From Streptosporangiaceae bacterium (GTDB lineage: Bacteria > Actinomycetota > Actinomycetes > Streptosporangiales > Streptosporangiaceae): a stretch of DNA of 64,000 bases. A model generated the notes under the pieces. That model did no database searches. It saw nothing but the letters and a program-made list of their open reading frames with translations, and was not told where the DNA came from. The stretch covers positions 195-64,194 of the forward strand of contig JBEKGC010000014.1 of assembly GCA_050013055.1 (NCBI GenBank). The letters are read 5' to 3'. The position numbers were made by a program, and so were the translations under genes. Shown here in pieces: positions 16,778 to 47,290 of this stretch. Numbering within the stretch: the stretch's first letter is position 1; each line of letters begins with the position of its first letter.

Positions 16778-16963
16778 GCGGCCGGACGGGCCGCGACAAC
16801 GACACGTTATGAGCGTTGCGCACAACCGGTCGCGAGCGCGGGCCTTCTGGGCCTGCGCGAGCGATCGGTGCTGGCAGCGCGGGCAGTAGGTTCTTTGCAT
16901 AACGTGACTATTGCATAGAACACTATGCCGCGAAGTCAAGCGGCAGGCCGAGAGGAGAAAACG

Positions 16964-22608: not shown

Positions 22609-22704
22609 CGTCAACTCCCTGTGTCGCGACCGGCTACTCGAAACGACGTGAGGCCGGCCGCGGCGGTAAGCCAATACCGCCGCGGCCGGCCACTCCGTAC
22701 CGGG

Positions 22705-24360
22705 TCAGGCCCTGGCGAGCCGGGCGGCGGCCGTTTGGGCCGCCTGCCGGGCACTGGTGGAGCCGTCAGGCGCTGGTGCGCCATACCTGACATCGATCCC
22801 GCGCTCCCGCGCGGCCTGGACGATGCCAGGCATCGCGCGCTCGGCCAGCGCGGCGATGGTGAAGGCCGGATTAACCGTCAGCGCTCCGGGCACTGCGGAG
22901 CCGTCGGTGACAAAGATGCCGGGGTGCCCGCGCAGCTCGTGCCGGTCGTCAAGGGCGGAGGTCGCCGGGTCGTCCCCGACCCGGCAGGATGCGAGCGGGT
23001 GCACGGTGTAGGCACCCACCGGCTCGTTGGTCCATGGCATCACCCTCGCCAGGCCGTCCTTTTCCAGGATCTCCCGCACCTCGGCGTCCGACAGCGCCCA
23101 GCCACGCAGGGTGTTCTCGGTCGGCCGGTAACGGAGATTGCTGAAGCCGAGGAACTGCTGGGAGAGCCGTGCAGAGTTGCCGGTCGGCGGCGGGGTGCCG
23201 AAGACCCCCTCGTTGTCGTCCTCGACCATGGTGAAGATGGTCAGCCAGGAGCGCCACCGCTTGAGTATCTCCTTCTTCTCAACGCCGAACCACGTCGGGC
23301 CGGTGGCGTCGGGCACCTGGGCGAGGATCGTGCCGAGCCCCGGCGGGAAGTAGAGCTGCTCCAGCGAATAGCGCTCGTATTCCGGCAGCGACCCGTCGAG
23401 CCGGTCCCACGAGGCCACGGTCGGTCCTTTGCCGATCTGCGAGGCGGCGTAGGCCAGCCCGTCGCCGCGCGACAGGCCGAGCAGCTCGGCGACCTTGTCC
23501 TCGTTCAGGTACGCGGTGTTGAGCCGTTCCCCGTTGCCAGAGAAGTAGCGGCCCACGGCGTGCGGCATGGGGCCCAGGTCGGCCTCGGAGCGCTGCAGGA
23601 TGACCGGCGTGGCGCCCGCGCCGGCCGCGATCACGATGATCTTCGCGTCGATGGTGCCGCTATCCGGATGGATCCGGTAATCCACCTCGTGCACGGTGTC
23701 GTAGTGCACCCGGTAACCGCCGTCGCTGGTCCGGGTGATCCGCTGGACCTCATGCAGTGGCCGGATCTCGGCGCCGTGCGCCAGGGCAGCCGGCAGGTAG
23801 TTCAGCAGCAGCGACCGCTTGGCGTCGAACCGGCATCCGGACATCATCCAGTTGCAGTTGGTGCACAGCGCATCGTCGATGGCGGCGGGCACCGGATTCG
23901 CGGTGCGTCCCGCGCGGTCGCAGGCCGCCGCCCACAAGCCCCCCGCGTAGGTGGCCGTATTCCAGTCCGCCATGCTGATCGGCAGCGCCTCGGCCACCCG
24001 GTCGTACCAGGGTTCCAGGGCGTCACGCGTGATCGCAGTCGGCCACATCCGGCGGCCGATGCTCCCCTGCCGGTTGAAGACGAAGCCGGGAGCGCGGGGC
24101 ATCGCGGCGAAGTAAACGACGCTGCCACCGCCCACGCAGTTGCCGCCGAGCAGGCTCATCCCGTCGCCGACCAGGAAGTCAAAGATGCGAGTCGACGATG
24201 AACCGAATTTGAAATCGTGGTCGAACTCCTCGGCCGCCAGCCACGGGCCGCGCTCAAGCACGGTGACCCGGGCGCCGCCCGCGGCCAGGTGGTACGCGGC
24301 GATGGCGCCACCGAAACCGCTACCGATCACCAGCACGTCGGTGCTCTCCACTGCGGTCAT
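22705..24360 (-). CDS. GMC-family FAD oxidoreductase (cholesterol oxidase-like large subunit)
   Basis: Start trimmed to ATG 24360 (MTAVESTDVLVIGSGFGGAIAAYHLA). It overlaps the stop of the upstream small-subunit gene as ATGA. The C-terminal region is GMC-type: HPLASCRVG...FVTDGSAVP. Confidence 0.85.
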   Translation of the reverse strand: MTAVESTDVLVIGSGFGGAIAAYHLAAGGARVTVLERGPWLAAEEFDHDFKFGSSSTRIFDFLVGDGMSLLGGNCVGGGSVVYFAAMPRAPGFVFNRQGSIGRRMWPTAITRDALEPWYDRVAEALPISMADWNTATYAGGLWAAACDRAGRTANPVPAAIDDALCTNCNWMMSGCRFDAKRSLLLNYLPAALAHGAEIRPLHEVQRITRTSDGGYRVHYDTVHEVDYRIHPDSGTIDAKIIVIAAGAGATPVILQRSEADLGPMPHAVGRYFSGNGERLNTAYLNEDKVAELLGLSRGDGLAYAASQIGKGPTVASWDRLDGSLPEYERYSLEQLYFPPGLGTILAQVPDATGPTWFGVEKKEILKRWRSWLTIFTMVEDDNEGVFGTPPPTGNSARLSQQFLGFSNLRYRPTENTLRGWALSDAEVREILEKDGLARVMPWTNEPVGAYTVHPLASCRVGDDPATSALDDRHELRGHPGIFVTDGSAVPGALTVNPAFTIAALAERAMPGIVQAARERGIDVRYGAPAPDGSTSARQAAQTAAARLARA

Positions 24361-24926
24361 GCCAGGCTCCCGTTCGCGGTCGTGCCAGGGTGGAGCCGGG
24401 CGAGTGGCCGGCGGTATGAGTAGTCGGGGAACCGCCACAGGCCATCGTCGTCCGGCTGGGCGAAGCCCATCATGGTCAGGCCGACATGCCCGGACTTGAT
24501 CGCGTCGGTCGTGTGGCTGTGCGCGCCGGTGTCGAACGCCATGTTGCAGAACATCGCCAGCCCCACCCACTGGCCCTTCTCGGGATGATCCGGCGCGGTA
24601 AGTTCCTGGACCAGCGCGGTACGGTTGGCAAAGTCGAGCGCCACCAACGGCGGCACCGACTCGTCTTGGGGAAGCCCGTGCCCGGCCCGGTACTTCTCAG
24701 CGTGGTCATTCAGCATGCGGGCCAGGTCGTCGAGCGCTTGATCCAAGCCGCCTTCCGGCATCTCGAGCAGCTGCAGGGCCCCGGCCGCCACGGCCCCGCC
24801 GCCCTCGGCCGCACCTGCGACCGCCCTGTCTCCCGGCCACCTCTTCTCACCCGGCACGATCGTGTCGGCGAATGCTTCCAACGTCATGGTCATGACCTGC
24901 CCATCGCCCAGTTCATCTGGTCGCAT
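24357..24926 (-). CDS. Small partner subunit of the GMC oxidoreductase (gluconate 2-dehydrogenase subunit-3-like family)
   Basis: Start trimmed to ATG 24926, with a strong GGAGGA 7 nt upstream. The block LEAFADTIVPGEKRWPGDRAVAGAAEGGG resembles the family N-terminal motif. It is translationally coupled to the GMC gene. The family call is tentative. Confidence 0.6.
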   Translation of the reverse strand: MRPDELGDGQVMTMTLEAFADTIVPGEKRWPGDRAVAGAAEGGGAVAAGALQLLEMPEGGLDQALDDLARMLNDHAEKYRAGHGLPQDESVPPLVALDFANRTALVQELTAPDHPEKGQWVGLAMFCNMAFDTGAHSHTTDAIKSGHVGLTMMGFAQPDDDGLWRFPDYSYRRPLARLHPGTTANGSLA

Positions 24927-25126
24927 GGTGTTTCCTCCTGCCGTCCAGTTCATCGTCGAGAGAGAGCAATCCATTTCACCGGGATTTATTACCTGCCGGT
25001 CAATGGCGCCGCGAAATTTCTCGGTTTATCTGAAGACGTGTTTATGCGTTACTATTATTATGTCAGTATTGAGGCATAAGGCACCTTCCGCATTGCTGCG
25101 CTGATTCGTCGGCGAGAGCCGAAACG

Positions 25127-35269: not shown

Positions 35270-35347
35270 AAGCGACTACGGCTGAGGTGGTTCCGGGAAA
35301 TGTGGCCATGGGTTGGCGGTAGTCGGTGTGCATAATCCGCCAGGTCT

Positions 35348-35373
35348 TGAAGTTCGCGATAATCTGAACTTCA
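35348..35373. promoter_or_regulatory. Operator-like inverted repeat flanking a -10-like GATAAT, upstream of the ACAD operon
   Basis: The sequence is TGAAGTTC-GCGATAATCT-GAACTTCA. It is followed at 35398-35430 by the direct repeats AGTGCGCCTCA x2 and the CTTGAG/CTCAAG inverted repeat. Confidence 0.35.
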
Positions 35374-35470
35374 GCCCATTTGCCTATTCGCTAGAGTGCG
35401 TCTTGAGTGCGCCTCAAGTGCGCCTCAAAGGCCGCGATCAGGCGGCAATTTTCGTGTAGCGTACATCGAT

Positions 35471-36664
35471 GTGCTGGCAAATGTTACCGATATCCCAGAT
35501 GGGCCGTCGTCTCAGCAAGTTGCCGACTGGGTCCGTATTCAGCTGTCTGGTTTTTTGTCCGATGTGGTCAACCCAGGGGCCGCTGACCGGGACGCGGCCG
35601 GCACGCCACTGACCGCTGCCGCCTTCGCGCCCGCCGCCGTGGCCGGCCTGTTCGGGTACCTCGTCCCCGCCGCCCACGGCGGCGCGGGCGGCGACCGGCG
35701 TACCTTCGGCCTGATACTTGAACACCTCGGCCACGCCTGCGAGGAGCTGGAATACGCCTCCCTGGTGTCCATGTACGCCGACATCCCTGCCGTCATCGCC
35801 GCCGCCGGCCGCCCCGACCTGACCGACCGCTACGTCCTGCCGATGATCACCGGGAAACGGTTCGGCACCATGGCTTACACCGAGCGAACTGACGCCTTCG
35901 ATTTCGGCTGCCGGGTCATCGCGGCGGGCGGCGGGTTCGAGGTGACCGGGGACAAGGTGCTGCAGACCGGCGGTCACCTTGCCGACGTGTTCCTCACCTA
36001 CGTCCGCGACGACCGCGACGACCTGCGGGCGTTCCTGATCGAACGCGGCGATCCCGGCGTCACCGTCGAGCCGGTCCCGACCTCCGGATTCAAGGCGGCG
36101 GGCCTGACCCGGCTAACCCTCGACCGGGTAAGCCTCGACGCGGGCCGGCAGCTCGTCCGCGTCGACGGGCTCAGCCACGCCCAGCTGTTCCTCAACCAGC
36201 GTCGGCTGTTCATCGCCTGTCCGATGGTCGGCCGGATGAGGGCGATCCTCGAGCACTGCGCCCGGTACCTCAGTGGCGTGATCCGCCACGGCCAGCCGGT
36301 CAACGGGTTCCAGGCCGTGCAGGCCAGGCTCGGCCGGATGCGAATTCGGTACGAGACCTCCCGCGCCGTCCTGCACGACGCCCTGGACCGGCTGGGCGCC
36401 GGTGACTACAACGGACTGTTCGACCCGGTCATCTCGGCGGCGAAATACGCCGTCGTTGACAACGCTATTGCCCTGGCCATGGACGCCGTCCACCTCACCG
36501 GGTGGATGGGTTACAGCCGCGAGCTTCCCTACGAACGGTACCTGCGCGGGTTCATGGGTGGCATCGCCGGCCAGACCGCGCAAGACGTCCTAGAAATCCT
36601 CCTCGGCAACGACGTGATAACCCAATCCGAGTTCGGCCGCCACCTCGAGGGAGTCCTACCATGA
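35471..36664 (+). CDS. Acyl-CoA dehydrogenase-family protein
   Basis: This is ORF 35396-36664. I prefer the GTG 35471 start because the preceding 25 codons have poor GC3 and the size then fits about 397 aa. The ACAD-like layout shows GYLVPAAHGGAGGD, a mid beta-domain and C-terminal helices ending ...GIAGQTAQDVLEIL. The stop overlaps the next ATG as ATGA. Confidence 0.75.
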   Translation: MLANVTDIPDGPSSQQVADWVRIQLSGFLSDVVNPGAADRDAAGTPLTAAAFAPAAVAGLFGYLVPAAHGGAGGDRRTFGLILEHLGHACEELEYASLVSMYADIPAVIAAAGRPDLTDRYVLPMITGKRFGTMAYTERTDAFDFGCRVIAAGGGFEVTGDKVLQTGGHLADVFLTYVRDDRDDLRAFLIERGDPGVTVEPVPTSGFKAAGLTRLTLDRVSLDAGRQLVRVDGLSHAQLFLNQRRLFIACPMVGRMRAILEHCARYLSGVIRHGQPVNGFQAVQARLGRMRIRYETSRAVLHDALDRLGAGDYNGLFDPVISAAKYAVVDNAIALAMDAVHLTGWMGYSRELPYERYLRGFMGGIAGQTAQDVLEILLGNDVITQSEFGRHLEGVLP

Positions 36665-36942
36665 AGATCGTGCTGTCCGGCGCCTTGGTGCGCTTTGCCG
36701 ACTACACGAAGGAAGTCGAAGTCGAGGCCACCACCGTCACCGAAGGCCTCGAGTTCCTCACCGCCCGCTACCCTGACCTCAAAACCGTGCTTCTCGACGG
36801 CGACGGCCGGGTCCGGCGTACCCACCAGCTGTTCCTCAACGGCGAGCAGGTCGAGCGGGGCGCGTACCCGCTGGGTGCAGCCCCGGTCAGCTGCGCCAAC
36901 CCGGACACCTTGTTCGTGCTGACCGCAGTGGCCGGAGGCTGA
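36661..36942 (+). CDS. MoaD/ThiS-family ubiquitin-like sulfur-carrier protein (C-terminal Gly-Gly)
   Basis: 93 aa, running from MKIVLSGALVRFADYTKEVEVEATTVTEGLEFL to ...NGEQV...PDTLFVLTAVAGG-stop. The beta-grasp pattern and terminal GG are typical of the family. The start is ATGA-coupled to the ACAD gene. Confidence 0.7.
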   Translation: MKIVLSGALVRFADYTKEVEVEATTVTEGLEFLTARYPDLKTVLLDGDGRVRRTHQLFLNGEQVERGAYPLGAAPVSCANPDTLFVLTAVAGG

Positions 36943-36943
36943 G

Positions 36944-37786
36944 ATGCCGCGGCGTACCCGCATCGCCTTGACCTCCGACACCTGCCTCTTCTCGCCGGTG
37001 CAGATGCACCCGGCCTCGATCCTGCGGGTCGGGATGGCCGCATTGGCGTCCTGCATCGGCACCCAGCTCACCGAATGGCGGGCCCTCAAGCTGGAGCATC
37101 GCACCACCGTCGTCATCATCGGGGTCACGCTCACCTACCTGCGCGACTTCGGTTTCTTCTCCGCCAGCCATATCAACGTCGACGCGGGCCTGACCACTCG
37201 CCGCGGCGGCCGGTTCCTCGAACTCGAGTGCGTCCTCGGGCCGGCCGACGACCCGTTCGCCGTGCTCACCGTCCTCAACCGGCCGGTCACCCTCAGTGGT
37301 ACCGAGGCCCTCGACGGAACCCCCGGTTCCCTCGACTCGGTCCTGCTGGCCCGCTTCGACGCCGACGAGCACGACGAGTCCCCGGTCGCCCGACCCGTCA
37401 TCGACGCCACCAAGGCCCTCGAGACCGGCGGTGAGCTGATCGACAAGGGCACGATGTCGTTCACCGTCTCCCGGGCCGACTGCGAGATCGCCGACCAATG
37501 GCAGAACGTACGCCTGCCCGACTGGTTGTCGATGGGCCGCGAACGGATGGTGTTCGCGGCCGCCGACCCCCGGGTCAAGACCGGGCTGCGGGTCCCCATG
37601 ACCCGCCTCTACGCCGAGTACCGTCGCCCGATGTACCTCGGCGACGAGGGGATCCTCGCCACCCGGGCTTACGCGACCGCCGGCACGGTGTCGTTCGTGC
37701 ATGAGCTGCGCACCGTCACATCCGGCGCTCCTGAAGGCGTCTGCGCGGTCGCAGTCGAGGAATTCGCCACCGGCGGGCAACCATGA
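36944..37786 (+). CDS. Hypothetical protein, possibly a double hot-dog (thioesterase/LnmK-like) fold
   Basis: 280 aa with high GC3. It starts 1 nt after the MoaD-like stop, and its own stop overlaps the next ATG as ATGA. The two halves each look like a hot-dog unit, for example FTVSRADCEIADQWQNVRLPDWLSMGRERM. The fold call is weak. Confidence 0.55.
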   Translation: MPRRTRIALTSDTCLFSPVQMHPASILRVGMAALASCIGTQLTEWRALKLEHRTTVVIIGVTLTYLRDFGFFSASHINVDAGLTTRRGGRFLELECVLGPADDPFAVLTVLNRPVTLSGTEALDGTPGSLDSVLLARFDADEHDESPVARPVIDATKALETGGELIDKGTMSFTVSRADCEIADQWQNVRLPDWLSMGRERMVFAAADPRVKTGLRVPMTRLYAEYRRPMYLGDEGILATRAYATAGTVSFVHELRTVTSGAPEGVCAVAVEEFATGGQP

Positions 37787-38847
37787 CCGCATCCGCCCCC
37801 GACCAGGCGAACCTGCAGGCACTCGCCGAGCGGATGACCAATGACGTGGGCGCCGCCCTGGCTTGCGCCGTGGTCGTCATCGGCGATCGGCTCGGCCTGT
37901 ACCGGGCGCTGGCCGACATCGGCCCGGTTGACGCAGGTAAGCTCGCCAGCACGCTGGGCCTCTCCGCTCGCATGGTCGCCGAATGGCTGCTCAACCAGGC
38001 TGCCCACGGCTACATCAGCTACGACCCTGGCGACCGCGCCTACTACCTGAGCCCTGAGCAAGAGGCGCTGCTCGCCGACGAGTCAAGCTCGTCGTTTCTC
38101 GCTGGGGCCTTCCAGTTCGCCACCGCGATGATCAAGGCTGAGGAGCGGATCGAGGACACGTTCCGCACCGGTGCCGGGATGCGCTGGGGCGAGCACCACC
38201 CGGAGCTGTTCGACGGCCTGGCGCGGTTCTCCCGCCCGATCTACGCTCACCGGCTTGTCGACGTGTTCGTCCCCGCCGTGCCGGGCCTCGCCGAACGCTT
38301 GGCGGGGGGCGCGGTCGTCGCCGACATCGGACCCGGGCACGGATACTCGACCACGCTGCTCGCACGGCGGTTCCCCGCGTCGCGCTTCTACGGTTTCGAC
38401 AACCATCCCGCTTCTGTCGCGGCGGCGCAGCGGCTCGCCGTCGCCCAGGGGCTCGGCGACCGGGTCCGTTTCGAGGTCGCCGAGGCCACGTCGTTCCCGG
38501 ATCACGGGTACGACGTAATAACGTTCTTCAACTGCATGCACGACGTCGCGTTCGCCGACGTCAGCGCCCGGCACTGCCACGAGGTGCTCCATCCGGACGG
38601 TTACGTCTTCATGGTCGAGCCGATCGGCGGGGATGAGGTGGAGGACAACTTCACCCCGGGCGGCCGGCTGATGTCCGGGGCGTCCGTGCTGTGCTGCACC
38701 CCGCACGGCATGGTCGACGGCGGCTGCGCGCTCGGCACCGTCTTCGCCGACAGCCGGCTGCGCGAGATCATGCTCGGTGCCGGGTTCTCATCCTTTGACC
38801 GCGTCATGACCACCCCGTACAACCGCGTGTTCGCCGCCCGGCCCTAG
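37783..38847 (+). CDS. Class I SAM-dependent methyltransferase with an N-terminal winged-helix dimerisation domain
   Basis: 354 aa. Motif I is VADIGPGHGYST. The N-terminus LGLYRALADIGPVDAGKLASTLGLSARMVAEWL resembles O-methyltransferase dimerisation/HTH domains. Confidence 0.85.
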   Translation: MTASAPDQANLQALAERMTNDVGAALACAVVVIGDRLGLYRALADIGPVDAGKLASTLGLSARMVAEWLLNQAAHGYISYDPGDRAYYLSPEQEALLADESSSSFLAGAFQFATAMIKAEERIEDTFRTGAGMRWGEHHPELFDGLARFSRPIYAHRLVDVFVPAVPGLAERLAGGAVVADIGPGHGYSTTLLARRFPASRFYGFDNHPASVAAAQRLAVAQGLGDRVRFEVAEATSFPDHGYDVITFFNCMHDVAFADVSARHCHEVLHPDGYVFMVEPIGGDEVEDNFTPGGRLMSGASVLCCTPHGMVDGGCALGTVFADSRLREIMLGAGFSSFDRVMTTPYNRVFAARP

Positions 38848-38857
38848 GAGGGATCGC

Positions 38858-40117
38858 GTGCCACCACCCGCGGACGGGTACCGGCTGCGCCTCGCCCATG
38901 GCACCGCGCTGCTGCTCGGCGCGGTGCTCGGACCGGGGGTGCTCGCCTTGCCTCATCTGGCCGCCGCCGCGGCCGGGCCCGCGTCGGTGATCGCCTGGGC
39001 GATCCTGATCGTAGTGAGCGTCCCGGTGGCGGTCACGTTCGCGGCCCTCGGCGCTCGCTATCCGGATGGCGGGGGGGTCGCGTCGTTCGCGGCCCGCGCG
39101 TTCGGCCGCCGGACTGCCGCCGCGGTCGGCTGGTGGTTCTACGCCGCGGTACCCGTCGGGTCACTCGCGGCCGCCACGATCGGCGCCCAGTACGTCACCG
39201 GCGGCCTCGGCGGCGGCAGCGTACCCGTGGTGGCGTGCCTGCTGCTCGGCTCCGCGTTCGCGGTCAACTATGCGGGCCTGCGGGTGTCCGGGTCGCTGCA
39301 AGTCGCCCTCGCCGGGCTGCTCACGGCGATGCTGGTGACCGCGGTCGCTGTCGCCGCCCCCGACACCCGGATCAGCAATTTCGCGCCGCTGCTGCCGCAC
39401 GGGACCTCCGGGATCGGGGCCGCGATCGGAGTGCTGATGTTCGCGTTCGTCGGCTGGGAGGCGGTGAGCTCCCTGTCGGCGGACTTCGCCGACCCGGTCC
39501 GGCATCTGCCCCGTGCCACCGCCGTCACCCTTGTCGTGGTCGGCCTCCTCTACTTCGGGGTCGCGGTGGTGACGATCGGGGTCCTCGGCGGCGCCGCCGG
39601 GCACTCTCCGGTACCGCTCACATTGCTACTGGAGCGAGGGATAGGGCCGACGGCCAGCCGGGTGACGGCGACCGGGGCGGCGCTGCTCACGTTGGGGGTT
39701 ATCAACACGTACCTGGCGGGAAGCGCCCGGCTTGGCGCGGCCATGGCCCGCGACGGGATGCTCCCCCGGTTCCTGTCCCGGGGCGGCGCACCAGGGCAGG
39801 TACCTAGGCGCAGTCTCACCGTGCAGGCGGCGATCGCGGGGTTGCTCACCGCGGTGTCGCTGGCCCGGCCGATCCCGCTGGACGCGCTGATGCGGGCCAC
39901 CTCAGCGTGCCTAGCGGCGGTCACCGTGGTCGGTCTCGCCGCGGCGGTACGGCTGCTGCCCCAGCGCGGATGGGGGCATCGCGGCGCGGTGGCGGCGATT
40001 ACGTTCACCGCCGCCACGCTCGCCACCTGCGGGGCGTTTCTCTTGATGCCCGTCCTGCTCGGTCTCGCCGCCGCAGGCTACGGTGCCCGTGCCCGCCCGG
40101 TGGTGGCTGACTCCTGA
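38858..40117 (+). CDS. APC-superfamily amino acid/polyamine permease
   Basis: 419 aa with a GTG start and about 12 TM helices. The typical N-terminal block is ...LGAVLGPGVLALP...AALGARYPDGGGVASF. Confidence 0.85.
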   Translation: MPPPADGYRLRLAHGTALLLGAVLGPGVLALPHLAAAAAGPASVIAWAILIVVSVPVAVTFAALGARYPDGGGVASFAARAFGRRTAAAVGWWFYAAVPVGSLAAATIGAQYVTGGLGGGSVPVVACLLLGSAFAVNYAGLRVSGSLQVALAGLLTAMLVTAVAVAAPDTRISNFAPLLPHGTSGIGAAIGVLMFAFVGWEAVSSLSADFADPVRHLPRATAVTLVVVGLLYFGVAVVTIGVLGGAAGHSPVPLTLLLERGIGPTASRVTATGAALLTLGVINTYLAGSARLGAAMARDGMLPRFLSRGGAPGQVPRRSLTVQAAIAGLLTAVSLARPIPLDALMRATSACLAAVTVVGLAAAVRLLPQRGWGHRGAVAAITFTAATLATCGAFLLMPVLLGLAAAGYGARARPVVADS

Positions 40118-40128
40118 CCGCGCTGCCG

Positions 40129-40569
40129 TCAGTGGACGGCGCCCTTCAGGTAATCGAGCAGCTCGAAGATCCTGTCCTGATTCGACAGTAGCTGCGCCTG
40201 GTTGCCGAGCAACTGAGCCTGGTTCGACTCGATCGTCGCCTGGTTGGCCAGCAGCCGGTCGAATTTTCCCTGGTTGCTCAGGATGTGCTCCTGATTGGCC
40301 AGCAGCACGGCCTGATTGCCGACGACCTTGTCAAGCTTCTCCTGGTTGCCCAGGATGCGCCCCTGGTTCGCCTCGATGGCCCCTTGGCCGGCCAGAACCT
40401 TGTCGAGCTTCTCCTGGTTGCTCTTTATCGTTGCCTGATTCACCAAAATCGTGCCCTGGTTGGAGACCACGGTGTCGAGCTTCCCCTGGTTACGCAAGAT
40501 CGTTCCCTGGTTCGCCAGGATCTTCTCCTGGTTCCTGACGACAACCGTTTCTTCAGTGTTCAAGGTCAT
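40129..40569 (-). CDS. NQ-heptad repeat protein (unknown family)
   Basis: 146 aa with GGAG 7 nt upstream of the ATG and high GC3 in this frame. There are 17 (N/G)Q units spaced 7,7,10 residues apart. I recognise no family. Confidence 0.75.
   Translation of the reverse strand: MTLNTEETVVVRNQEKILANQGTILRNQGKLDTVVSNQGTILVNQATIKSNQEKLDKVLAGQGAIEANQGRILGNQEKLDKVVGNQAVLLANQEHILSNQGKFDRLLANQATIESNQAQLLGNQAQLLSNQDRIFELLDYLKGAVH
40162..40533 (-). repeat. Imperfect tandem coding repeat (21/21/30 nt, giving a 72-nt super-unit, about 4.6 copies)
   Basis: The protein-level super-repeat is NQxxILx-NQxxIxx-NQxKLDxVxx. It appears as NQEKILANQGTILRNQGKLDTVVS, NQGTILVNQATIKSNQEKLDKVLA, GQGAIEANQGRILGNQEKLDKVVG, NQAVLLANQEHILSNQGKFDRLLA and NQATIESNQAQLLGNQAQLLS. 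Confidence 0.8.
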
Positions 40570-41437: not shown

Positions 41438-44400
41438 ATGACTGGCACACGGATCGCTGTCGTCGGCGTCGCCCTGCGCTACCCCGATGCCGAGACCCCA
41501 GAGGACCTCTGGCGCAACGTCCTGGCCGGCCGCCGGGCCTTCCGGAACGTGCCCGACGAGCGGATGCGGATGGAAGACTACTACTCGGCCGATCCCACCG
41601 CACCGGACCGGCACTACACCCGCAAGGCCGCGGTGCTTGAAGGCTTTGAGTTCGACCGGGTGAAATACCGGATCGGCGGGAGCACCTTCCGTTCCACGGA
41701 CATGACCCACTGGCTGGCCCTGGACACCGTGGCCCGGGCGCTGGCGGATGCCGGCTTCGCCGACGGCGAAGGACTGCCGAAGACCAACACCGGCGTCGTC
41801 ATCGGCAACACCCTGACCGGAGAGTTCAGCCGGGCCAACCTCATGCGGCTGCGCTGGCCGTACGTCCGGCGTACGGTCGGGGCGGCGCTGCGCGAGCAAG
41901 GCTGGGACGACCAGCAGCTCGGCGTCTTCCTCGACCGGCTCGAGGAGCGCTACAAGACCCCGTTCCCGCCGATCGACGAAGACACCCTGGCGGGCGGCCT
42001 GGCGAACACGATCGCGGGCCGGATCTGCAACTACTTCGATTTCGGCGGCGGCGGCTTTACCGTGGACGGCGCCTGCTCATCCTCGCTGCTTTCTGTGGCC
42101 ACCGCGTGCAACGCGCTGACCGCCGGGCAGATCGACGCGGCCATAGCCGGCGGCGTTGATCTGTCCATCGACCCCTTCGAGGTGGTGGGCTTCGCCAAGA
42201 CCGGGGCGCTGGCGAAGAAGGAAATGAAGGTGTACGACCGCGACTCGCAGGGCTTCTGGCCGGGCGAGGGCTGCGGCATTCTCGTGCTCATGCGGGACGA
42301 AGACGCCCTGGATATGGGCAAGTCCCGGTATGCGACCATCGCCGGCTGGGGTTACTCCTCGGACGGCAAGGGCGGCCTGACCCGGCCGGAGGCCGACGGG
42401 CACCGGCGGGCGATCAAGAACGCCTATGAGCAGGCCGGGTTTGGCTTCGAGACCATCTCTTACCTGGAAGGCCACGGCACGGGCACGGCGGTGGGCGATG
42501 CCACCGAGCTGACCGCCTTCTCCGAAGCGCGCCGGGCCGCGGCCGGCCCGGCGGCACCGCCGATACCGATCGGCACCGTGAAGGGGAACTTCGGGCACAC
42601 CAAGGGCGCCGCCGGTGTGGCCGGCCTGATCAAGGCCATCCTTGCGGTCAAGCACCAGATCATCCCGCCGGCCACCAGCCACCACGAGACTCACCCCGTG
42701 CTGGCGGGCGACCGGCCCGCGCTGCGGGTGCCCGCCACCGCTGAGCTGTTCCCCGAGGGCAGACCGGTCCGCGCGGCCGTCTCGTCCATGGGGTTCGGCG
42801 GCATCAACGCGCACGTGGTCGTCGAGCACGCCGACGGTACCGCCCCCCACCGCATCGACCAGGCCACCCGGAACCTGGTGCGCTCGCGCCAGGATGCGGA
42901 GCTGCTGCTGCTTGACGCGGCCGGCATGGCCGAGCTGCGCGGCCAGGTCGCGCAGCTGGCGGCCCTGGCACCGCAGATGTCCTTCGCGGAACTCGGCGAC
43001 ATGGCGGCATCGCTGGCCGGCTCGCTGGACAACAGGCCAATCCGGGCCGCGGTCGTGGCCCGGTCCCCCGAGGAGGCCGAACAGCGCCTGGCCAAGCTCC
43101 TGAACATGCTCGACAACGGGGCGCGCTCGGTGCTCAACACGGCGGACGGCGTGTACGTCGGCAACGCCGGGGTGCCGCCGCGCATCGCCTTCCTGTTCCC
43201 CGGCCAGGGCGCGGGGCGGCGCGGCGACGGCGGCGCGCTGCGGCGGCGGTTCGCGGAACTCGACGTGCTGTACCAGAAGCAGAGCCTGCCCACCGACGGC
43301 GACCTGGTCGCCACCGCGGTGGCCCAGCCGCGCATCGTGACCGCCTCCGTAGCCGGCCTGCGGGTGCTCTCGGCCCTCGGCATCGAGGCGGTGACCGCGG
43401 CGGGCCATAGCCTCGGTGAGCTGACCGCGCTGCACTGGGCCGGCGCGATGGACGAGGAGACGCTGCTGCGCGCGGCCGCCACCAGGGGCGCCGTGATGGC
43501 CGAGGCCAGTGACGGCGGCGGCACGATGGCCGGCATCGCGGCGGCGCCCGAGGAGGTCACGCCGCTGCTGGCGGGCGAGCCTGTGGTCATCGCCGGCTAC
43601 AACAGCCCCACCCAGACCGTGATCAGCGGACCCGTGGACGCGGTCGACCGCGTGTCGGCTCTCGCGCAGGCTCGCGGGCTCGGCGCGGGCAGGATCAACG
43701 TCTCGCATGCCTTCCACTCCGCGGCCGTGGCGCCCGCCGCCACCGCCTTCCGCGCCTACCTCGAAGACCAGCAATTCACGCCGCTGGAGCGCACCATGGT
43801 GTCGACGGTCACCGGGGAGCACCTGCCGCCGACCACCGACGTGCCGGAACTGCTCGCCCGGCAGGTGCTTGACCCGGTCAGGTTTAGCGACGCGGTGCAG
43901 GTCATGGCGACCGAGGCGGACCTGTTCATCGAGGTGGGCCCCGGACGCATACTCCGCAGCCTGGCCGCCGAGACGGTTGCGGCCGTCCCGGCGATCTCGA
44001 TCGAGTCGGACAGCGACTCGCTGGCCGGCCTGCTGAACGCGGTCGGCGCCGCGTACACGCTCGGCGCCCCGGTGCAGTACGACGTGCTGTTCCAGGACCG
44101 TTACACCCGGCCATTCCCGCTGGACAAGGAGTTCAAGTTCCTGGCCAGCCCGTGCGAGTCCGCGCCGGAGGGCGACTTCGCCACCAGCGGGCCAGGTGCG
44201 CTGGCCGGATCCGCCGGGCCGGACGCCCCGGCCGCCGCCGCCGCGCAGCCCGCCGGGGGCGAACCCCTCGACAGCCTTGAGGTGCTCCGCAAGCTCGCGG
44301 CCGAGCGGGCCGAGCTACCCCTGGAGGCGGTCCAGTCGACCAGCAACCCGATCGACGAGCTGCACCTGAGCTCGATCACCGTCGGGCAGATCGTCAACCA

Positions 44401-47290
44401 GGCGGCCCGCGATCTGGGCCTGCCGGGCGTGGTCACCACCTCAGCGTTCGCCACCTCCACCCTGGCCGAAATCGCGCAGATGCTCGATGAGCTCGGCCAG
44501 ACCGCGCAGCCCGACGAGGCGGGCAAGGACACCGTTCCCGGTGTCGGGCCGTGGGTGCGCGCGTTTGACGTGAGCCTCGTGCCGGCCGACCCCGGCTCGC
44601 CCGCCGGCCCGGCCGGGGCCGGCCGCTGGGAACTGCTCGCACCATCACCGCACCCGCTCGCCCAGCCTCTTCTTGACGGGCTGCGGCAGGCGGACCTCGG
44701 GGACGGCGTGCTGCTCTGCCTGCCCCGCCACGCGGACGTGGAGCATATCCCGCTCATGATCGACGCCGCGCGCGCCGCGCTCTCGGTGACCGGTGACGTG
44801 CGGTTCGTCGCAGTCGGCGGCCGCAAGGGCGCCGCGGGCCTGGCCAAAACCCTGCACCTGGAGGCACCGAACGTCGCGACCACCCTGGTGATCCTGCCGG
44901 TGCCAGAGGACCCGACGCAGCAGCAGGTCCAGGAGATAGTGGCCCGCATCACCGCCGACGTCGCCGCGACCGACGGCTTCAGCGAGGTTCATTACGACTC
45001 AGCCGGCACGCGGACCGTTCCGATCCTGCGGCCGCTTCCCCGGGCCAGCCGGGCGAGCATTACCGGCGTCGGCGGTGCCCTGACCGAAGCTGACGTGCTG
45101 CTGGTGACCGGCGGCGGCAAGGGCATCACGGCCGAGTGCGCACTCACGCTCGGCCGTGAATCAGGCGCCGCCATCGGGATCTTGGGCCGCTCGGCCCCGT
45201 CGGCGGACGCCGAGCTCGCGGCCAACCTGGAACGGCTGCAGAAGGCCTCGGTGAAGTTTCACTACGCCCAGGCGGACGTGACCGCACCGGACCAGGTCAA
45301 GGCCGCCGTCGACGAGATTCAGCGGACGCTCGGAGCTGTCACCGCGGTGCTGCACGGGTCGGGACGCAACGAACCGCAGGCGCTCACCAACCTCGACGAG
45401 TCCTCGTTCCGGCGCACGGTCGCACCGAAGATCACCGGCCTCGAGAACGTGCTGGCCGCAACCGACCCTGGCGCGCTGAAGCTGCTGATCACCTTTGGCA
45501 GCATCATCGGCCGCGCGGGCCTGCGCGGCGAGGCAGACTACTCCACCGCCAACGACTGGCTCACCGACCTGACCAAGCAGACACGAGAGCAGAATCCCGG
45601 CTGCCGGTGCCTCGCGCTCGAATGGTCAGTATGGGCCGGCGCGGGCATGGGCGAGCGGCTCGGGGTCCTCGAAGCACTCATCCGCGAGGGAATCGCGCCC
45701 ATCCCGCTGCAGGACGGCATCGACATCCTCGTCGAACTGCTCGCCGATCCGACGACACCGGACGCCGTGGTCATCATGGGCCGCGCGGAAGGCCTGCCGA
45801 CCATCACGCTGGAGCAGCGCGAGCTGCCGCTGACCCGCTTCATCGAACGGCCCCAGGTGCACTACGCGGGCGTGGAACTCGTGGTCGACGCGGAGCTGAC
45901 GGCCGAGTCCGACCCGTATCTCAGCGACCACCTGCTCGACGGCGACCTGCTGTTCCCTGCCGTGATCGGCATGGAGGCCATGACCCAGGCCGCGGCCGCC
46001 GTCACCGGCCAGGAAGCGGCGCCGACGCTGGAGGACGTCGAGTTCCTGCGGCCGATCGTCGTCCCGGTCCGGGGCAGCTCCACCATCCGGATCGCGGTGC
46101 TGGCGGAGAACCCGGACACGGTGCATGCCGTCATCCGCAGCAGCGACACAGGATTCCAGGCCGATCATTTCCGGGCCACGCTGAGGTACTCGGGCCCGCG
46201 GCCGCAAGGACAGGTGCCGGAAATGGCGGACCAGTCCAGGCCAAGGGTCCCGGTGGATCCGGCCGCCGAGTTGTACGGCAGCGTCCTGTTCCAGGGTGGC
46301 CGGTTCCGCCGGCTGCTCGGCTACAGAAAACTGGCCGCCAGGGAATGCGTGGCGGAAATCTCCAACGTTCCCGGCGACGGCTGGTTCGGCGACTTCCTGC
46401 CACCGGACCTGGTGCTGGCGGATCCGGGTACGCGGGATGCCCTCATGCACTCGATCCAGTGCTGTGTGCCCGATGCCACCCTGCTGCCGGCCGGCATCGA
46501 ACAGCTTCACCTGACCGACCCCGGGCGCGCGGCGGACCTGGGCCAGGTGACCCTGCATGCTCGTGAGCGGTCCCGCGACGGCGATACCTACCTGTACGAC
46601 CTCGATATCTACGATCCGGCTGGCTCCGTGATCGAGCAATGGCGAGGCCTGCGCCTCCAGGCGGTACGCAAGGAGGACGGCTCGGGCCCGTGGGTTCCCG
46701 CGCTGCTCGGGCCGTATCTGGAACGCAACGTCGAACCAGCGCTCGGCGGCGGCCTGGCCACGGCCATCTACCCCGACGACGGGCCCCTGGACGGAACGGA
46801 ATCCAGGCGCCGCCAGACGGCGACGGTCCTCAGCGGGGCCCTGGGCCGGGTGGCCGAGGTCACCTACCGCCCGGACGGCAGGCCGCTGGTGGAAGGCATT
46901 CAGGTCACGGCGTCACACGGCGCGAGCGTCACCTTTGCGGTGGCGAGCCAGCGGCAGGTCAGCTGTGATGTCGAGCTGGCTGCGGACCGGCCGGAGGACG
47001 ACTGGGCCAGCCTGCTTGGCGCCGACGGGCTGGAGCTGGCCCGGCTGATCGCATCCGGGCGGGGCGAGAGCCTGTCGGTCGCGGCGACACGAGTATGGGG
47101 CGCCATCGAATGCCTGCGCAAGACCGGTCACGCCATCGTGACGCTGGTGGACGCGTCCGGGCCGGAGGCGGGCCGGTGGGTCGTGCTGAGCAGCGGCAGC
47201 GCCCGGATCGCCTCCTTCGCGACGCGCCTCAACGAAACCTCAGAACCGGTGGTCTTCACCATGCTTGCGGAAGGCGACGAGGTCAAGTGA
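41438..47290 (+). CDS. pksE: Enediyne-type iterative type I polyketide synthase PKSE (KS-AT-ACP-KR-DH-PPTase)
   Basis: 1950 aa. Domain markers: KS active-site Cys213 in VDGACSSSL (42074-42076); AT Ser658 in GHSLGE (43409-43411); ACP LHLSSI with Ser978/979 (about 44369-44374); KR Rossmann TGGGKG at aa 1224-1229 (45107-45124); DH His1498 in DHLLDGDLLFP (45929-45931); C-terminal Sfp-like PPTase region with CDVE (Asp1844) and WGAIECLRK. The residue numbering is almost identical to that of characterised PKSEs as I recall them (Cys about 211, Ser about 659). Confidence 0.95.
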   Translation: MTGTRIAVVGVALRYPDAETPEDLWRNVLAGRRAFRNVPDERMRMEDYYSADPTAPDRHYTRKAAVLEGFEFDRVKYRIGGSTFRSTDMTHWLALDTVARALADAGFADGEGLPKTNTGVVIGNTLTGEFSRANLMRLRWPYVRRTVGAALREQGWDDQQLGVFLDRLEERYKTPFPPIDEDTLAGGLANTIAGRICNYFDFGGGGFTVDGACSSSLLSVATACNALTAGQIDAAIAGGVDLSIDPFEVVGFAKTGALAKKEMKVYDRDSQGFWPGEGCGILVLMRDEDALDMGKSRYATIAGWGYSSDGKGGLTRPEADGHRRAIKNAYEQAGFGFETISYLEGHGTGTAVGDATELTAFSEARRAAAGPAAPPIPIGTVKGNFGHTKGAAGVAGLIKAILAVKHQIIPPATSHHETHPVLAGDRPALRVPATAELFPEGRPVRAAVSSMGFGGINAHVVVEHADGTAPHRIDQATRNLVRSRQDAELLLLDAAGMAELRGQVAQLAALAPQMSFAELGDMAASLAGSLDNRPIRAAVVARSPEEAEQRLAKLLNMLDNGARSVLNTADGVYVGNAGVPPRIAFLFPGQGAGRRGDGGALRRRFAELDVLYQKQSLPTDGDLVATAVAQPRIVTASVAGLRVLSALGIEAVTAAGHSLGELTALHWAGAMDEETLLRAAATRGAVMAEASDGGGTMAGIAAAPEEVTPLLAGEPVVIAGYNSPTQTVISGPVDAVDRVSALAQARGLGAGRINVSHAFHSAAVAPAATAFRAYLEDQQFTPLERTMVSTVTGEHLPPTTDVPELLARQVLDPVRFSDAVQVMATEADLFIEVGPGRILRSLAAETVAAVPAISIESDSDSLAGLLNAVGAAYTLGAPVQYDVLFQDRYTRPFPLDKEFKFLASPCESAPEGDFATSGPGALAGSAGPDAPAAAAAQPAGGEPLDSLEVLRKLAAERAELPLEAVQSTSNPIDELHLSSITVGQIVNQAARDLGLPGVVTTSAFATSTLAEIAQMLDELGQTAQPDEAGKDTVPGVGPWVRAFDVSLVPADPGSPAGPAGAGRWELLAPSPHPLAQPLLDGLRQADLGDGVLLCLPRHADVEHIPLMIDAARAALSVTGDVRFVAVGGRKGAAGLAKTLHLEAPNVATTLVILPVPEDPTQQQVQEIVARITADVAATDGFSEVHYDSAGTRTVPILRPLPRASRASITGVGGALTEADVLLVTGGGKGITAECALTLGRESGAAIGILGRSAPSADAELAANLERLQKASVKFHYAQADVTAPDQVKAAVDEIQRTLGAVTAVLHGSGRNEPQALTNLDESSFRRTVAPKITGLENVLAATDPGALKLLITFGSIIGRAGLRGEADYSTANDWLTDLTKQTREQNPGCRCLALEWSVWAGAGMGERLGVLEALIREGIAPIPLQDGIDILVELLADPTTPDAVVIMGRAEGLPTITLEQRELPLTRFIERPQVHYAGVELVVDAELTAESDPYLSDHLLDGDLLFPAVIGMEAMTQAAAAVTGQEAAPTLEDVEFLRPIVVPVRGSSTIRIAVLAENPDTVHAVIRSSDTGFQADHFRATLRYSGPRPQGQVPEMADQSRPRVPVDPAAELYGSVLFQGGRFRRLLGYRKLAARECVAEISNVPGDGWFGDFLPPDLVLADPGTRDALMHSIQCCVPDATLLPAGIEQLHLTDPGRAADLGQVTLHARERSRDGDTYLYDLDIYDPAGSVIEQWRGLRLQAVRKEDGSGPWVPALLGPYLERNVEPALGGGLATAIYPDDGPLDGTESRRRQTATVLSGALGRVAEVTYRPDGRPLVEGIQVTASHGASVTFAVASQRQVSCDVELAADRPEDDWASLLGADGLELARLIASGRGESLSVAATRVWGAIECLRKTGHAIVTLVDASGPEAGRWVVLSSGSARIASFATRLNETSEPVVFTMLAEGDEVK

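Follow-up and report, generated by a model that had tools for sequence, protein, structure and literature searches.

A rare three-protein core in an actinobacterial five-gene operon and its probable role in carrier-dependent sulfur insertion

Introduction

Several described systems share single components with the locus presented here. Small carrier proteins of the CysO type operate in cysteine synthesis by CysO-CysM-Mec+-MoeZ and in the BexX-CysO system of 2-thiosugar formation, whereas the mycobactin logic of MbtM-MbtL-MbtN joins an acyl-AMP ligase, a small carrier and an acyl-carrier dehydrogenase. Protein- or CoA-borne thioesters are the substrates of the double hot-dog proteins FatA/FatB and LnmK. 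Known thioacid pathways combine acyl-CoA with carrier-protein thiocarboxylates from primary metabolism, and the PtmA3/PtmU4 cassette found there also occurs in the clusters for thioquinolobactin, PDTC and yatakemycin, i.e., for thioacid- or thioester-containing products, yatakemycin being classed as thioester-containing (PMC6006322). Within the ACAD fold, loss of both catalytic glutamates defines Ch1CoA dehydrogenase (7P98) as well as 3-sulfinopropionyl-CoA desulfinase (AcdDPN7; PMC9293079), and the latter carries out non-redox C-S chemistry on a CoA thioester.

The operon described here combines a presumed sulfur carrier (SCP), an ACAD-fold protein (ACADc) and a double hot-dog protein (DHD). 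As a cassette, this core is absent as a curated family from Pfam and NCBIfam and unreported in the searchable literature, in line with the original prediction that a carrier coupled to an ACAD homologue fits no described pathway.

Results

Five genes in the analysed stretch of 64,000 nucleotides (hereafter the window) form a genuine operon around this rare, uncharacterised core (Table 1). A second in-frame GTG at 35396 is a possible start of ACADc, but the start chosen here yields a length in agreement with the 390–404 aa of its homologues. Neighbouring genes overlap by ATGA at 36661 and 37783, and the other two junctions are gaps of 1 nt (36943) and 10 nt (38848–38857); all reading frames, overlaps and gaps were exactly as originally predicted. 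The region upstream contains an inverted repeat (GAAGTTC-N10-GAACTTC, 35349–35372); the region matched nothing in Rfam and shares no conserved sequence with what lies upstream of other core loci.

Table 1. Features of the operon and of its surroundings in the window.
Feature	Coordinates	Strand	Basis or remarks
Upstream non-coding region, presumed promoter and 5' UTR	35270–35470	+	read from sequence
ACADc, ACAD-fold protein	35471–36664	+	GTG start, 397 aa; Acyl-CoA_dh_N/M/1 above Pfam cut-offs
SCP, presumed sulfur carrier, 93 aa	36661–36942	+	beta-grasp MoaD/ThiS/CysO-type, Ala-Gly-Gly end
DHD, double hot-dog protein, 280 aa	36944–37786	+	AF2 model, Foldseek
Class I SAM-methyltransferase-fold protein, 354 aa	37783–38847	+	Pfam, solved relatives
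APC-superfamily permease, 419 aa	38858–40117	+	AA_permease_2
PksE	41438–47290		
UnbV, enediyne-type gene	3598–5568		

The order ACADc-SCP-DHD was found in about 15 distinct loci of soil Actinomycetota, myxobacteria and the Streptomyces clavuligerus megaplasmid pSCL4, usually accompanied by a methyltransferase, and the core genes remain collinear and overlapping or nearly abutting down to 30% identity. In all related loci, SCP ends in GG immediately before the stop codon, with no more than 9 nt from there to the start of the DHD gene. Because gene order and tight junctions recur in all of them, the operon is more than a chance arrangement. The tight coupling of the genes originally proposed is supported. 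DHD is joined to ACADc in one library protein, which is a singleton.

The neighbours of the core vary and include a MoeB-type E1, SfnB, MetE-like proteins, APC permeases, SARP, ABC-F and a fatty-acyl-AMP ligase. A sulfur or thiol context is given by the SfnB-family gene directly upstream of the core in locus L010 (619 bits, cut-off 431), which has a GST downstream, and by MetE-like proteins beside three loci, in which the H-x-C...C zinc motif is intact. PaaI/MenI-like 4HBT thioesterases upstream in L014 and L029 and a fatty-acyl-AMP ligase directly upstream of the carrier gene in L026 place these variants in a CoA- or carrier-thioester context, and the SARP regulators, MFS and ABC-F genes flanking the cores of L014 and pSCL4 lend them the flavour of small-metabolite clusters.

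The sequence of SCP ends in ...LTAVAGG, directly before the stop codon, and the predicted GG end is invariant among 18 homologues and in every locus. SCP scores just under the Pfam ThiS cut-off (20 bits vs 22.5) and below that of SAMP1 (30 bits vs 60); its profile match spans the whole of the CysO-type chains 4n6e_B and 3dwg_C, including the C-terminus. Foldseek placed the AF2 model (pLDDT 80) close to SAMP1, a MoaD-related protein and CysO (TM ~0.8), in agreement with the MoaD/ThiS-like beta-grasp fold proposed for it. Since GG-ending beta-grasp proteins also act as protein modifiers, SAMP1 is the top structural match and the curated sulfur-carrier cut-offs are not reached, SCP could alternatively be a ubiquitin-like tag, or else have a structural or regulatory part in a complex of ACAD and hot-dog proteins that serves ordinary acyl-CoA metabolism. 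We regard such a non-sulfur role as improbable: the best sequence relatives of SCP are actinomycete CysO carriers, E2-, E3- or JAMM-like genes were found in none of the loci, a MoeB-rhodanese gene adjoins the core in L004, and the family, with about 218 clusters among 1.84 billion representatives, is far too rare for a housekeeping component of beta-oxidation.

Pfam scans of every plausible ORF revealed no ThiF/E1, JAMM or rhodanese domain in the window, and tblastn of the window with a MoeB-rhodanese protein gave no match, so that their absence, already noted in the original prediction, stands. This is no obstacle to carrier activation, since L004 carries a MoeB-type rhodanese-ThiF gene 570 bp upstream of the cassette (560 bits, cut-off 449) and in actinomycetes one MoeZ is known to serve several carrier proteins.

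The best solved relatives of ACADc are short-chain ACADs and Ch1CoA dehydrogenase, the latter ranking among the top three. Neither canonical catalytic-base position holds a glutamate: the MCAD-type site reads I-A-G-Q-T, with Ala/Gly (A366/G367) replacing Glu, and the IVD/LCAD-type site is Arg244. Judged by this loss of both glutamates, ACADc is not a canonical dehydrogenase. Asp104, conserved in the family, is a candidate non-canonical base; HMMER aligns it to the catalytic Asp91 of Ch1CoA dehydrogenase, whereas MAFFT puts it two residues off, and it is missing in the most divergent branch (P0118 and S. clavuligerus).

For DHD, the AF2 model (pLDDT 88, pTM 0.88) and Foldseek agree with the double hot-dog fold assigned beforehand, the top matches being acyl-ACP thioesterases (2own, FatA/FatB) and LnmK (E 1e-14 to 1e-11). 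Pfam 4HBT_2 matches weakly and in the C-terminal half only (20.6 vs a cut-off of 25.5), and Acyl-ACP_TE gave no match. All variants keep the motif R-x-x-C-E-x-A-D-Q-W (Cys180, Glu181) just ahead of the central helix of the second hot-dog half, its Cys-Glu lying directly N-terminal to the 4HBT_2-matching stretch (from profile position 13). To our knowledge, the catalytic residues described for Fat enzymes and for LnmK differ from this Cys-Glu...Asp-Gln-Trp set.

The methyltransferase-fold protein comprises a class I domain and an N-terminal Rv2258c-like winged-HTH domain (Methyltransf_25/31/11/12 and HTH_65 in Pfam), and its best solved relatives are TnmJ (8g5s, 3e-48), an enediyne-pathway protein that uses this fold for oxygenation rather than methylation, and Rv2258c (5f8c, 3e-39). 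Every sufficiently long main-clade locus from actinobacteria has an Rv2258c-like methyltransferase after DHD; myxobacterial L029 has an unrelated UbiE/BioC-like one at the same position, and the L014, L030 and pSCL4 cores have none. The permease (AA_permease_2, 124 bits) is closest to the YjeH-type transporter of methionine and branched-chain amino acids, but with 188.5 bits it stays under the cut-off of NCBIfam PRK11021 (284). Its gene is accessory and does not belong to the core: of about 10 distinct main-clade loci, 4 have an adjacent orthologue, and L030 has a different APC permease upstream.

Besides pksE and unbV, the window holds three DUF1702 genes of enediyne type, and the operon is placed between these enediyne-type genes. 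The operon ends 1321 nt from the pksE start, consistent with the roughly 1.3 kb stated originally; the space between them holds a convergent gene plus 870 non-coding base pairs. It had been speculated that the neighbouring pksE cluster makes a product whose sulfur is supplied and methylated by the operon, and both the enediyne-type surroundings and the origin of TnmJ would suit this. However, pksE lies near the core in this window only, i.e., in one of the roughly 15 distinct loci, and L016, which is most closely related to the operon (80–87% identity), lacks both pksE and the permease. On a plasmid of Streptomyces sp. NBC_00887, the nearest pksE cluster (72.7% identity) is compact and contiguous, with the same accessory families, but lacks all five genes. 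Plasmids with a close pksE homologue carry no DHD homologue except pSCL4, where core and pksE are 730 kb apart. Together with the intervening gene and non-coding DNA, these comparisons make sulfur delivery to the pksE product highly improbable, and the core is independent of pksE. The evidence favours the second reading offered in the original prediction, an independent small-molecule pathway. The suggested link to enediyne sulfur, for which the methyl trisulfide had been given as an example, is unsupported.

Discussion

The core probably inserts sulfur into a small acyl compound. As a full pathway, we tentatively favour a self-contained module in which sulfur enters an acyl thioester by way of the carrier and the resulting small sulfur metabolite is methylated and transported. 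A housekeeping MoeZ/MoeB-type E1 encoded elsewhere would adenylate the C-terminal glycine of SCP, leading to the thiocarboxylate. ACADc would bind an acyl-CoA or protein thioester, the acyl group probably being unsaturated already, and make or polarise an electrophilic carbon instead of performing an ordinary alpha,beta-dehydrogenation. Attack by the SCP thiocarboxylate on this carbon would give a carrier-C(=O)-S-substrate thioester, which DHD could split as acyl-ACP thioesterases do, regenerating the carrier and releasing a free thiol. In this window, the SAM methyltransferase may then methylate the sulfur to a thioether, and the product or an amino-acid-like precursor could cross the membrane through the YjeH-like permease.

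That DHD acts on thioesters is suggested by its modelled acyl-ACP thioesterase/LnmK fold and by the Cys-Glu beside the 4HBT_2 stretch, and methylation presumably belongs to the pathway, as methyltransferases of two unrelated families follow the core. Several points weigh against the favoured reading: the SCP scores under the curated ThiS and SAMP1 cut-offs, the E1-, rhodanese- and JAMM-free window, the ambiguous and incompletely conserved Asp104, the oxygenation by TnmJ, the three cores free of a methyltransferase, and a hot-dog fold that fits an acyltransferase or (de)hydratase equally well. Moreover, the two fusion proteins are both singletons from metagenome contigs.

An alternative option is a thioacid route, in which DHD is an LnmK-like acyl-CoA:carrier-thiocarboxylate acyltransferase rather than a thioesterase and ACADc only tailors the acyl chain; a mixed thioanhydride would lead to a thiocarboxylic acid, and the methyltransferase would form an S-methyl thioester. 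Such a non-homologous counterpart of the PtmA3/PtmU4 cassette has a precedent in pathways joining acyl-CoA with carrier thiocarboxylates (PMC6006322) and is consistent with LnmK, an acyltransferase/decarboxylase, among the top matches of DHD, with the ligase upstream of the carrier in L026 and with the two methyltransferase families. We nevertheless consider it unlikely, as ACADc, always coupled to the carrier and once fused to DHD, would have no necessary part in the sulfur chemistry, a type III CoA-transferase is absent altogether, and most loci, this window included for the adenylating enzyme, lack an acyl-CoA synthetase and an adenylating enzyme.

Decidedly unlikely is the scavenging or catabolism of organosulfur compounds, i.e., of an imported sulfur-containing acid or amino acid processed as CoA ester, with the ACAD-fold protein as desulfinase or DmdC-like C-S enzyme and the carrier accepting the released sulfur or shuttling it to methionine or cysteine metabolism. 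The sulfur-acquisition gene sfnB and the GST of L010, the MetE-like zinc thiol-methyltransferase-like genes and YjeH-like permeases beside several loci, and the desulfinase among ACAD-fold enzymes without catalytic Glu would agree with such a role. Yet these sulfur-related neighbours occur at a minority of loci, the SARP, ABC-F and MFS neighbours of other variants suggest secondary metabolism, most loci lack a CoA ligase, searches detected neither a sulfur-responsive riboswitch nor any other known RNA element, and the only role of a carrier thiocarboxylate known to us is that of a sulfur donor.

Compared with described enzymes, ACADc shares with Ch1CoA dehydrogenase the ACAD fold and the replacement of both glutamate sites (N241/T363 there, R244 and A366/G367 here). 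However, the two are no more than about 27% identical, ACADc reaches about 60–66 bits with the cyclohexane-CoA dehydrogenase models of NCBIfam (cut-offs 575–650), and the Asp pairing carries the ambiguity described above. AcdDPN7, likewise an ACAD fold without the catalytic glutamate, is only distantly related (82 bits vs a cut-off of 600; PDB 5af7 at 4e-10) and, unlike ACADc, has no known carrier-protein or hot-dog partner. ACADc also scores against the acyl-carrier dehydrogenases RedW, PigA and AnaB. DHD shares its architecture with FatA/FatB and LnmK (TM 0.6–0.75) at an identity of 10–15%. In L026, an MbtM/FadD32-like ligase followed by small-carrier and ACAD-fold genes resembles MbtM-MbtL-MbtN, but all resemblances are far under family cut-offs, and the small protein is a ThiS-like beta-grasp instead of a phosphopantetheinylated ACP.

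Like the proposed pathway, the PtmA3/PtmU4 cassette uses an acyl-CoA-type substrate and a carrier-protein thiocarboxylate as sulfur donor; it differs in its two-domain type III CoA-transferase and acyl-CoA synthetase, both absent from the window, in drawing its carriers from primary metabolism instead of encoding one inside the cassette, and in having no obligatory ACAD-fold protein. The CysO systems pair their carrier with a PLP enzyme or a thiazole-synthase homologue instead of ACAD-fold and double hot-dog partners, and the SCP operon differs further in its lack of a JAMM protease and in a carrier below curated family cut-offs. Nevertheless, the CysO-type carrier is the closest match to SCP in both sequence and structure and has the same ...AGG end, and in the BexX system the activating E1 can be encoded outside the cluster, as is proposed here.

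Layout of the operon and its gene products

An ORF listing and inspection of the sequence itself bore out the original prediction of five closely packed plus-strand genes, which are joined by an ATGA overlap, a 1-nt gap, a second ATGA overlap and a 10-nt gap (see table). The first three encode an acyl-CoA-dehydrogenase (ACAD)-fold protein (ACADc), a candidate sulfur carrier protein (SCP) and a double hot-dog protein (DHD), in the following referred to as the core or cassette. The fourth product carries an Rv2258c-like N-terminal winged HTH (Pfam HTH_65, 38 bits vs. a cut-off of 24) and a class I SAM-binding domain, for which Methyltransf_25, _31, _11 and _12 all exceed their Pfam cut-offs. Among solved structures it matches TnmJ (3e-48) and Rv2258c (3e-39), the former, its best solved relative, being an oxygenase in a methyltransferase fold. 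The permease belongs to the APC superfamily (Pfam AA_permease_2, 124 bits) and is closest to the methionine/branched-chain transporter YjeH, yet its PRK11021 score of 188.5 bits stays below the NCBIfam equivalog cut-off of 284.

At Rfam gathering thresholds, neither the window nor five loci scanned alongside it gave a riboswitch or leader RNA match, and the aligned upstream regions of six loci held no conserved element. Between 35000 and 41600, no promoter-like sites were detected, and terminator-like sites did not clearly exceed the shuffled expectation. In an AT-richer region upstream of the ACADc gene lies a perfect 7-bp inverted repeat (GAAGTTC-N10-GAACTTC, 35349-35372), which is not conserved upstream of other loci and could be an operator. 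The permease stop and the pksE start are 1321 nt apart; this interval holds a convergent gene ending 12 nt past the permease stop, followed by 870 bp of non-coding DNA. The convergent ORF (40129-40569, minus strand), which shows good codon bias and is preceded by a Shine-Dalgarno-like GGAG, encodes a 146-aa Asn/Gln-rich protein with short NQxxI/LxxNQxKLD-like repeats and no Pfam match.

Coordinates of the operon genes, the enediyne-type genes and the right end of the window
Feature	Position (nt)	Strand	Region	Basis
ACADc (ACAD-like, 397 aa)	35471 (GTG; alternative 35396)..36664	+	operon	ORF listing and direct sequence reading
SCP, 93 aa, C-terminus LTAVAGG then stop	36661..36942	+	operon	ORF listing and direct sequence reading
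DHD, 280 aa	36944..37786	+	operon	ORF listing and direct sequence reading
Methyltransferase-fold protein, 354 aa	37783..38847	+	operon	ORF listing and direct sequence reading
APC permease, 419 aa	38858..40117	+	operon	ORF listing and direct sequence reading
RPE65-like oxygenase	868-2220		enediyne-type cluster	
UnbV/CRTAC1	3598-5568		enediyne-type cluster	
Three DUF1702 paralogues	6730-7848, 15587-16777, 16925-17947		enediyne-type cluster	
P450	19501-20907		enediyne-type cluster	
CMD, GMC oxidoreductase, DUF5987	21538-24974		enediyne-type cluster	
PksE	41438-47290		enediyne-type cluster	
Hot-dog thioesterase	~47287-47763		enediyne-type cluster	
Flavin reductase	47585-48346		enediyne-type cluster	
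Biotin carboxylase/BCCP fusion, phosphoketolase, phosphotransacetylase, TauE/SafE sulfite-exporter-like protein, GH65 phosphorylase, MFS sugar transporter, DUF4262, SHMT	49815-55263 and 56143-63944		right end	

The putative carrier and the double hot-dog protein

The proposal of a ubiquitin-like sulfur carrier would have been refuted had the 93-aa protein failed to model as a beta-grasp fold. The protein does model as such (AF2, pLDDT 80), and a sequence profile matches the actinobacterial CysO chains 4n6e_B and 3dwg_C at full length, C-terminus included. In a Foldseek comparison with the PDB, the model reached TM values of 0.78-0.81 to SAMP1 (3po0), the MoaD-related 1v8c and CysO (4n6e_B/3dwg_C). 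The predicted Gly-Gly C-terminus is likewise present, with AGG directly before the stop in the window and an AGG/GG end at this position in 18 aligned homologues and every locus. SCP scores under its curated thresholds (Pfam ThiS 20.0 vs. 22.5 bits; NCBIfam SAMP1 30.3 vs. 60 and moaD_arch 24 vs. 49.5). As already noted from the sequence, no plausible ORF of the window contains a ThiF, JAMM or rhodanese domain, and domain scans of these ORFs together with tblastn found no cognate E1 or sulfurtransferase within the 64 kb. At a related main-clade locus (L004, 6790-7965), the gene directly upstream of the cassette encodes a MoeB-type E1 bearing a rhodanese domain at its N-terminus (560 bits vs. 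an NCBIfam cut-off of 449). A ubiquitin-like role of the carrier that does not involve sulfur has less support than sulfur transfer.

For DHD, whose structure was predicted with 21 aligned homologues as input, the confident AF2 model (pLDDT 88, pTM 0.88) and the Foldseek matches support the double hot-dog assignment made originally. The best PDB matches are the acyl-ACP thioesterases 2own and FatA/FatB as well as LnmK, the leinamycin acyltransferase/decarboxylase (E 4e-14 to 1e-10, TM 0.6-0.75), at an identity of just 10-15%. Pfam yielded a weak 4HBT_2 match only (20.6 vs. 25.5), restricted to the C-terminal half, and an NCBIfam scan gave no match; DHD stands outside every curated family. While DHD has the fold in common with these thioesterases and LnmK, it falls outside their sequence families, and its conserved residues form a distinct motif, R-x-x-C-E-x-A-D-Q-W, which is kept in all variants down to 30% identity and is not known to be the catalytic set of either. 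The motif immediately precedes the central helix of the second hot-dog half, directly N-terminal to the 4HBT_2 match (profile position 13 onward), a position which we take to be the usual site of catalytic residues in hot-dog enzymes.

Two fusion proteins occur as singletons in the representative library, one of a double hot-dog with ACADc (P0218, 682 aa) and one of a malate synthase with a double hot-dog (P0235, 810 aa). The latter hints at glyoxylate- or malyl-CoA-type substrates, but may also have arisen from an error in assembly or gene calling.

An ACAD-fold protein without the catalytic glutamates

ACADc displays the three-domain architecture of its superfamily (Acyl-CoA_dh_N, _M and _1 all exceed Pfam cut-offs) and is matched by about 75 ACADs of the PDB at E < 1e-5. 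Among its three best solved relatives is Ch1CoA dehydrogenase (Ch1DH, PDB 7P98), in which N241 and T363 take the place of both canonical glutamates and Asp91 acts as a new base at C3 (PMC9293079); the 3-sulfinopropionyl-CoA desulfinase likewise lacks the catalytic glutamate (PMC9293079). Mapping via the two Ch1DH residues and alignment to solved ACADs placed the MCAD-type site of ACADc at Ala366/Gly367, within the invariant motif G-I-A-G-Q-T, and the IVD/LCAD-type site at Arg244, in a near-invariant R244-R245 pair. Neither site holds an acidic residue and the replacement extends across the family; judged by these positions, ACADc is not a canonical dehydrogenase. The conserved Asp104 might serve as a Ch1DH-like base, which we keep as no more than a lead, because HMMER aligns it with D91 whereas MAFFT offsets it by two residues. 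It is furthermore missing from the most divergent ACADc branch (P0118 and the Streptomyces clavuligerus protein), and the Ch1DH-type models of NCBIfam fall far short of their cut-offs on ACADc.

Distribution and genomic neighbourhood of the cassette

The cassette is rare. The DHD family counts 33 members among 5.8 billion 90%-identity clusters; the carrier family has 25 and the ACADc subfamily about 60. When 1.84 billion representatives at 50% identity were searched with a profile, 218 relatives of the hot-dog protein emerged, 112 of which reached E 1e-30 or better. Gene neighbourhoods and a metagenome scan mapped by tblastn revealed the order ACADc, carrier, DHD in about 15 distinct loci, with the hot-dog gene starting at most 9 nt after the carrier stop in every one. 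A scan of GTDB species representatives returned at least one locus, identical to L001, which is a lower bound as the peptide patterns used fit the main actinobacterial clade only. Overall, the cassette ranges over Actinomycetota and myxobacteria, including two cultured organisms, Paraliomyxa miuraensis and the long-studied antibiotic producer S. clavuligerus ATCC 27064, where it resides on the megaplasmid pSCL4.

In the main clade, the core is always followed by the Rv2258c-like methyltransferase, whereas the myxobacterial locus L029, which adjoins an NRPS and whose ACAD is identical to an NCBI-named protein from Hyalangium sp., is arranged as 4HBT, core and an unrelated UbiE/BioC-like methyltransferase. 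Two unrelated families at the same position argue that methylation would be a real pathway step, despite TnmJ being an oxygenase. The contig of P0025 (JGI 3300041965) carries the cassette between two UbiE-type methyltransferases and, about 4.5 kb downstream, also encodes an UnbV/ASPIC FG-GAP protein; that this family also occurs in the enediyne-type cluster of the window may be coincidence, as it is frequent in soil bacteria.

The YjeH-like permease accompanies the core in 4 of about 10 distinct main-clade loci (window included). Three loci of this clade have a MetE-like protein whose H-x-C...C zinc motif is intact, and L011 has a second, LCAD-like ACAD. At L010 (209-1405), likewise of the main clade, an SfnB-family sulfur-acquisition oxidoreductase is encoded directly upstream of the cassette (619 bits vs. 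an NCBIfam cut-off of 431). The SfnB and MetE-like neighbours suggest organosulfur scavenging as an alternative function, which we consider less supported than sulfur insertion into a metabolite. Variants other than the main clade comprise MFS, 4HBT thioesterase, core and SARP regulator (L014); LuxR, a different APC permease, core and DUF5995 (L030); and an MbtM/FadD32-like acyl-AMP ligase followed by carrier, hot-dog and two ACADs (L026).

On pSCL4 (NZ_CP045850.1, ~1,157,200-1,168,600), for which the annotation combined tblastn with GC3-based ORF calls and sequence searches of the PDB, the core lies at ~1,161,726-1,164,180 and is preceded by a homologue of PgaE/OxyS-like (aromatic-polyketide-type) FAD monooxygenases and an ARE-type ABC-F gene, and followed by a SARP-type regulator of ~1100 aa. 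This core is a distant version, with a carrier ending in AIAGG, the hot-dog motif CELADQW and an ACAD lacking both glutamates, and the locus may constitute a silent mini-cluster.

Relation to pksE and the enediyne-type cluster

The original prediction had further speculated that the operon supplies sulfur to the pksE product, e.g., for a methyl trisulfide of the calicheamicin type. This part did not hold up: co-occurrence with pksE is not conserved, as no locus besides the window has pksE within 10 kb of the core (L001-L030 including L016, and pSCL4). In L016, the closest relative of the operon (80-87% identity), a MarR gene lies upstream, and permease and pksE are both missing. Conversely, the closest pksE homologue (72.7% identity) lies on a plasmid of Streptomyces sp. 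NBC_00887, in a compact cluster with the same accessory families as the window (RPE65-like oxygenase, CRTAC1/UnbV, enediyne biosynthesis protein, PKS, thioesterase, flavin reductase, two DUF1702 genes, P450, GMC oxidoreductase, DUF5987, CMD and a TIGR03084 protein) and none of the five operon genes. An enediyne role consequently has less support than an independent one. Together with the convergent gene and the 870 bp that separate permease and pksE, these comparisons point to no functional link with pksE, and the operon should not count toward the pksE pathway in annotations of the window.

Two specific connections were rejected. Similarity to TnmJ does not indicate an enediyne link, since loci that have no PKS at all also carry this conserved methyltransferase. 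A role in the origin of the calicheamicin-type trisulfide was discarded as well, given that members of the hot-dog and carrier families come only from soil metagenomes, myxobacteria and S. clavuligerus and that no close pksE plasmid carries them; the only hot-dog homologue among pksE plasmids is the distant one of pSCL4, 730 kb from the pksE of that plasmid.

In the window, the enediyne-type genes are split into two parts (868-26866 and 41438-48346) on either side of the operon. Because the same families are contiguous on the NBC_00887 plasmid, the cluster looks rearranged and broken up by ~16-35 kb of other genes. Primary metabolism or transport genes occupy the right end of the window, and the right border of any biosynthetic cluster is therefore likely to lie at ~48.3-49.5 kb.

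Proposed mechanism and comparison with known systems

We infer sulfur insertion to be the most likely reading of the cassette. A housekeeping MoeZ/MoeB-type enzyme would thiocarboxylate the carrier, and the base-less ACADc would bind an acyl, probably unsaturated, thioester and supply or polarise an electrophilic carbon, to which the carrier thiocarboxylate could add. DHD would then hydrolyse the carrier-borne thioester, like its acyl-ACP-cleaving structural relatives, and the freed thiol would be methylated, with the product or a precursor being transported.

Chief among the alternatives is a thioacid route that would have the hot-dog protein act as an acyltransferase, by analogy to the PtmA3/PtmU4 cassette. 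That type of cassette consists of an acyl-CoA synthetase and a two-domain type III CoA-transferase (PMC6006322); Pfam and NCBIfam detected AMP-binding or CoA-transferase domains in none of the five operon proteins. Organosulfur scavenging, a ubiquitin-like role without sulfur and the enediyne link are less well supported than this rival.

Returning to sulfur insertion, a more far-reaching version strikes us as possible, albeit less likely than not: the trio may represent a new way to make C-S bonds, in which an ACAD-fold flavoenzyme lacking its base, together with a Cys/Glu double hot-dog, thiolates an acyl thioester via a protein thiocarboxylate, and may form the heart of very small, mobile gene clusters making a sulfur-containing, possibly bioactive metabolite. 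In some clusters, the core is accompanied by SARP regulators, by ABC-F or MFS genes, or by methyltransferases of two unrelated families.

Our search of the literature on carrier proteins, ACADs, hot-dog proteins and thiocarboxylates found no description of this cassette. Since it is present in cultured S. clavuligerus ATCC 27064 and P. miuraensis, its chemistry and product are directly testable. To our knowledge, pathways depending on a sulfur carrier protein are few, comprising those to thiamin, molybdopterin, variants of cysteine and methionine biosynthesis, 2-thiosugars and thioacids, and each of them brought new C-S bond chemistry to light. The cassette appears to be a further case of sulfur transfer that depends on a carrier protein, with partner enzymes that have no precedent, namely a base-less ACAD-fold protein and a double hot-dog protein that has a conserved Cys-Glu motif of its own; neither is known to have been reported with a sulfur carrier before.
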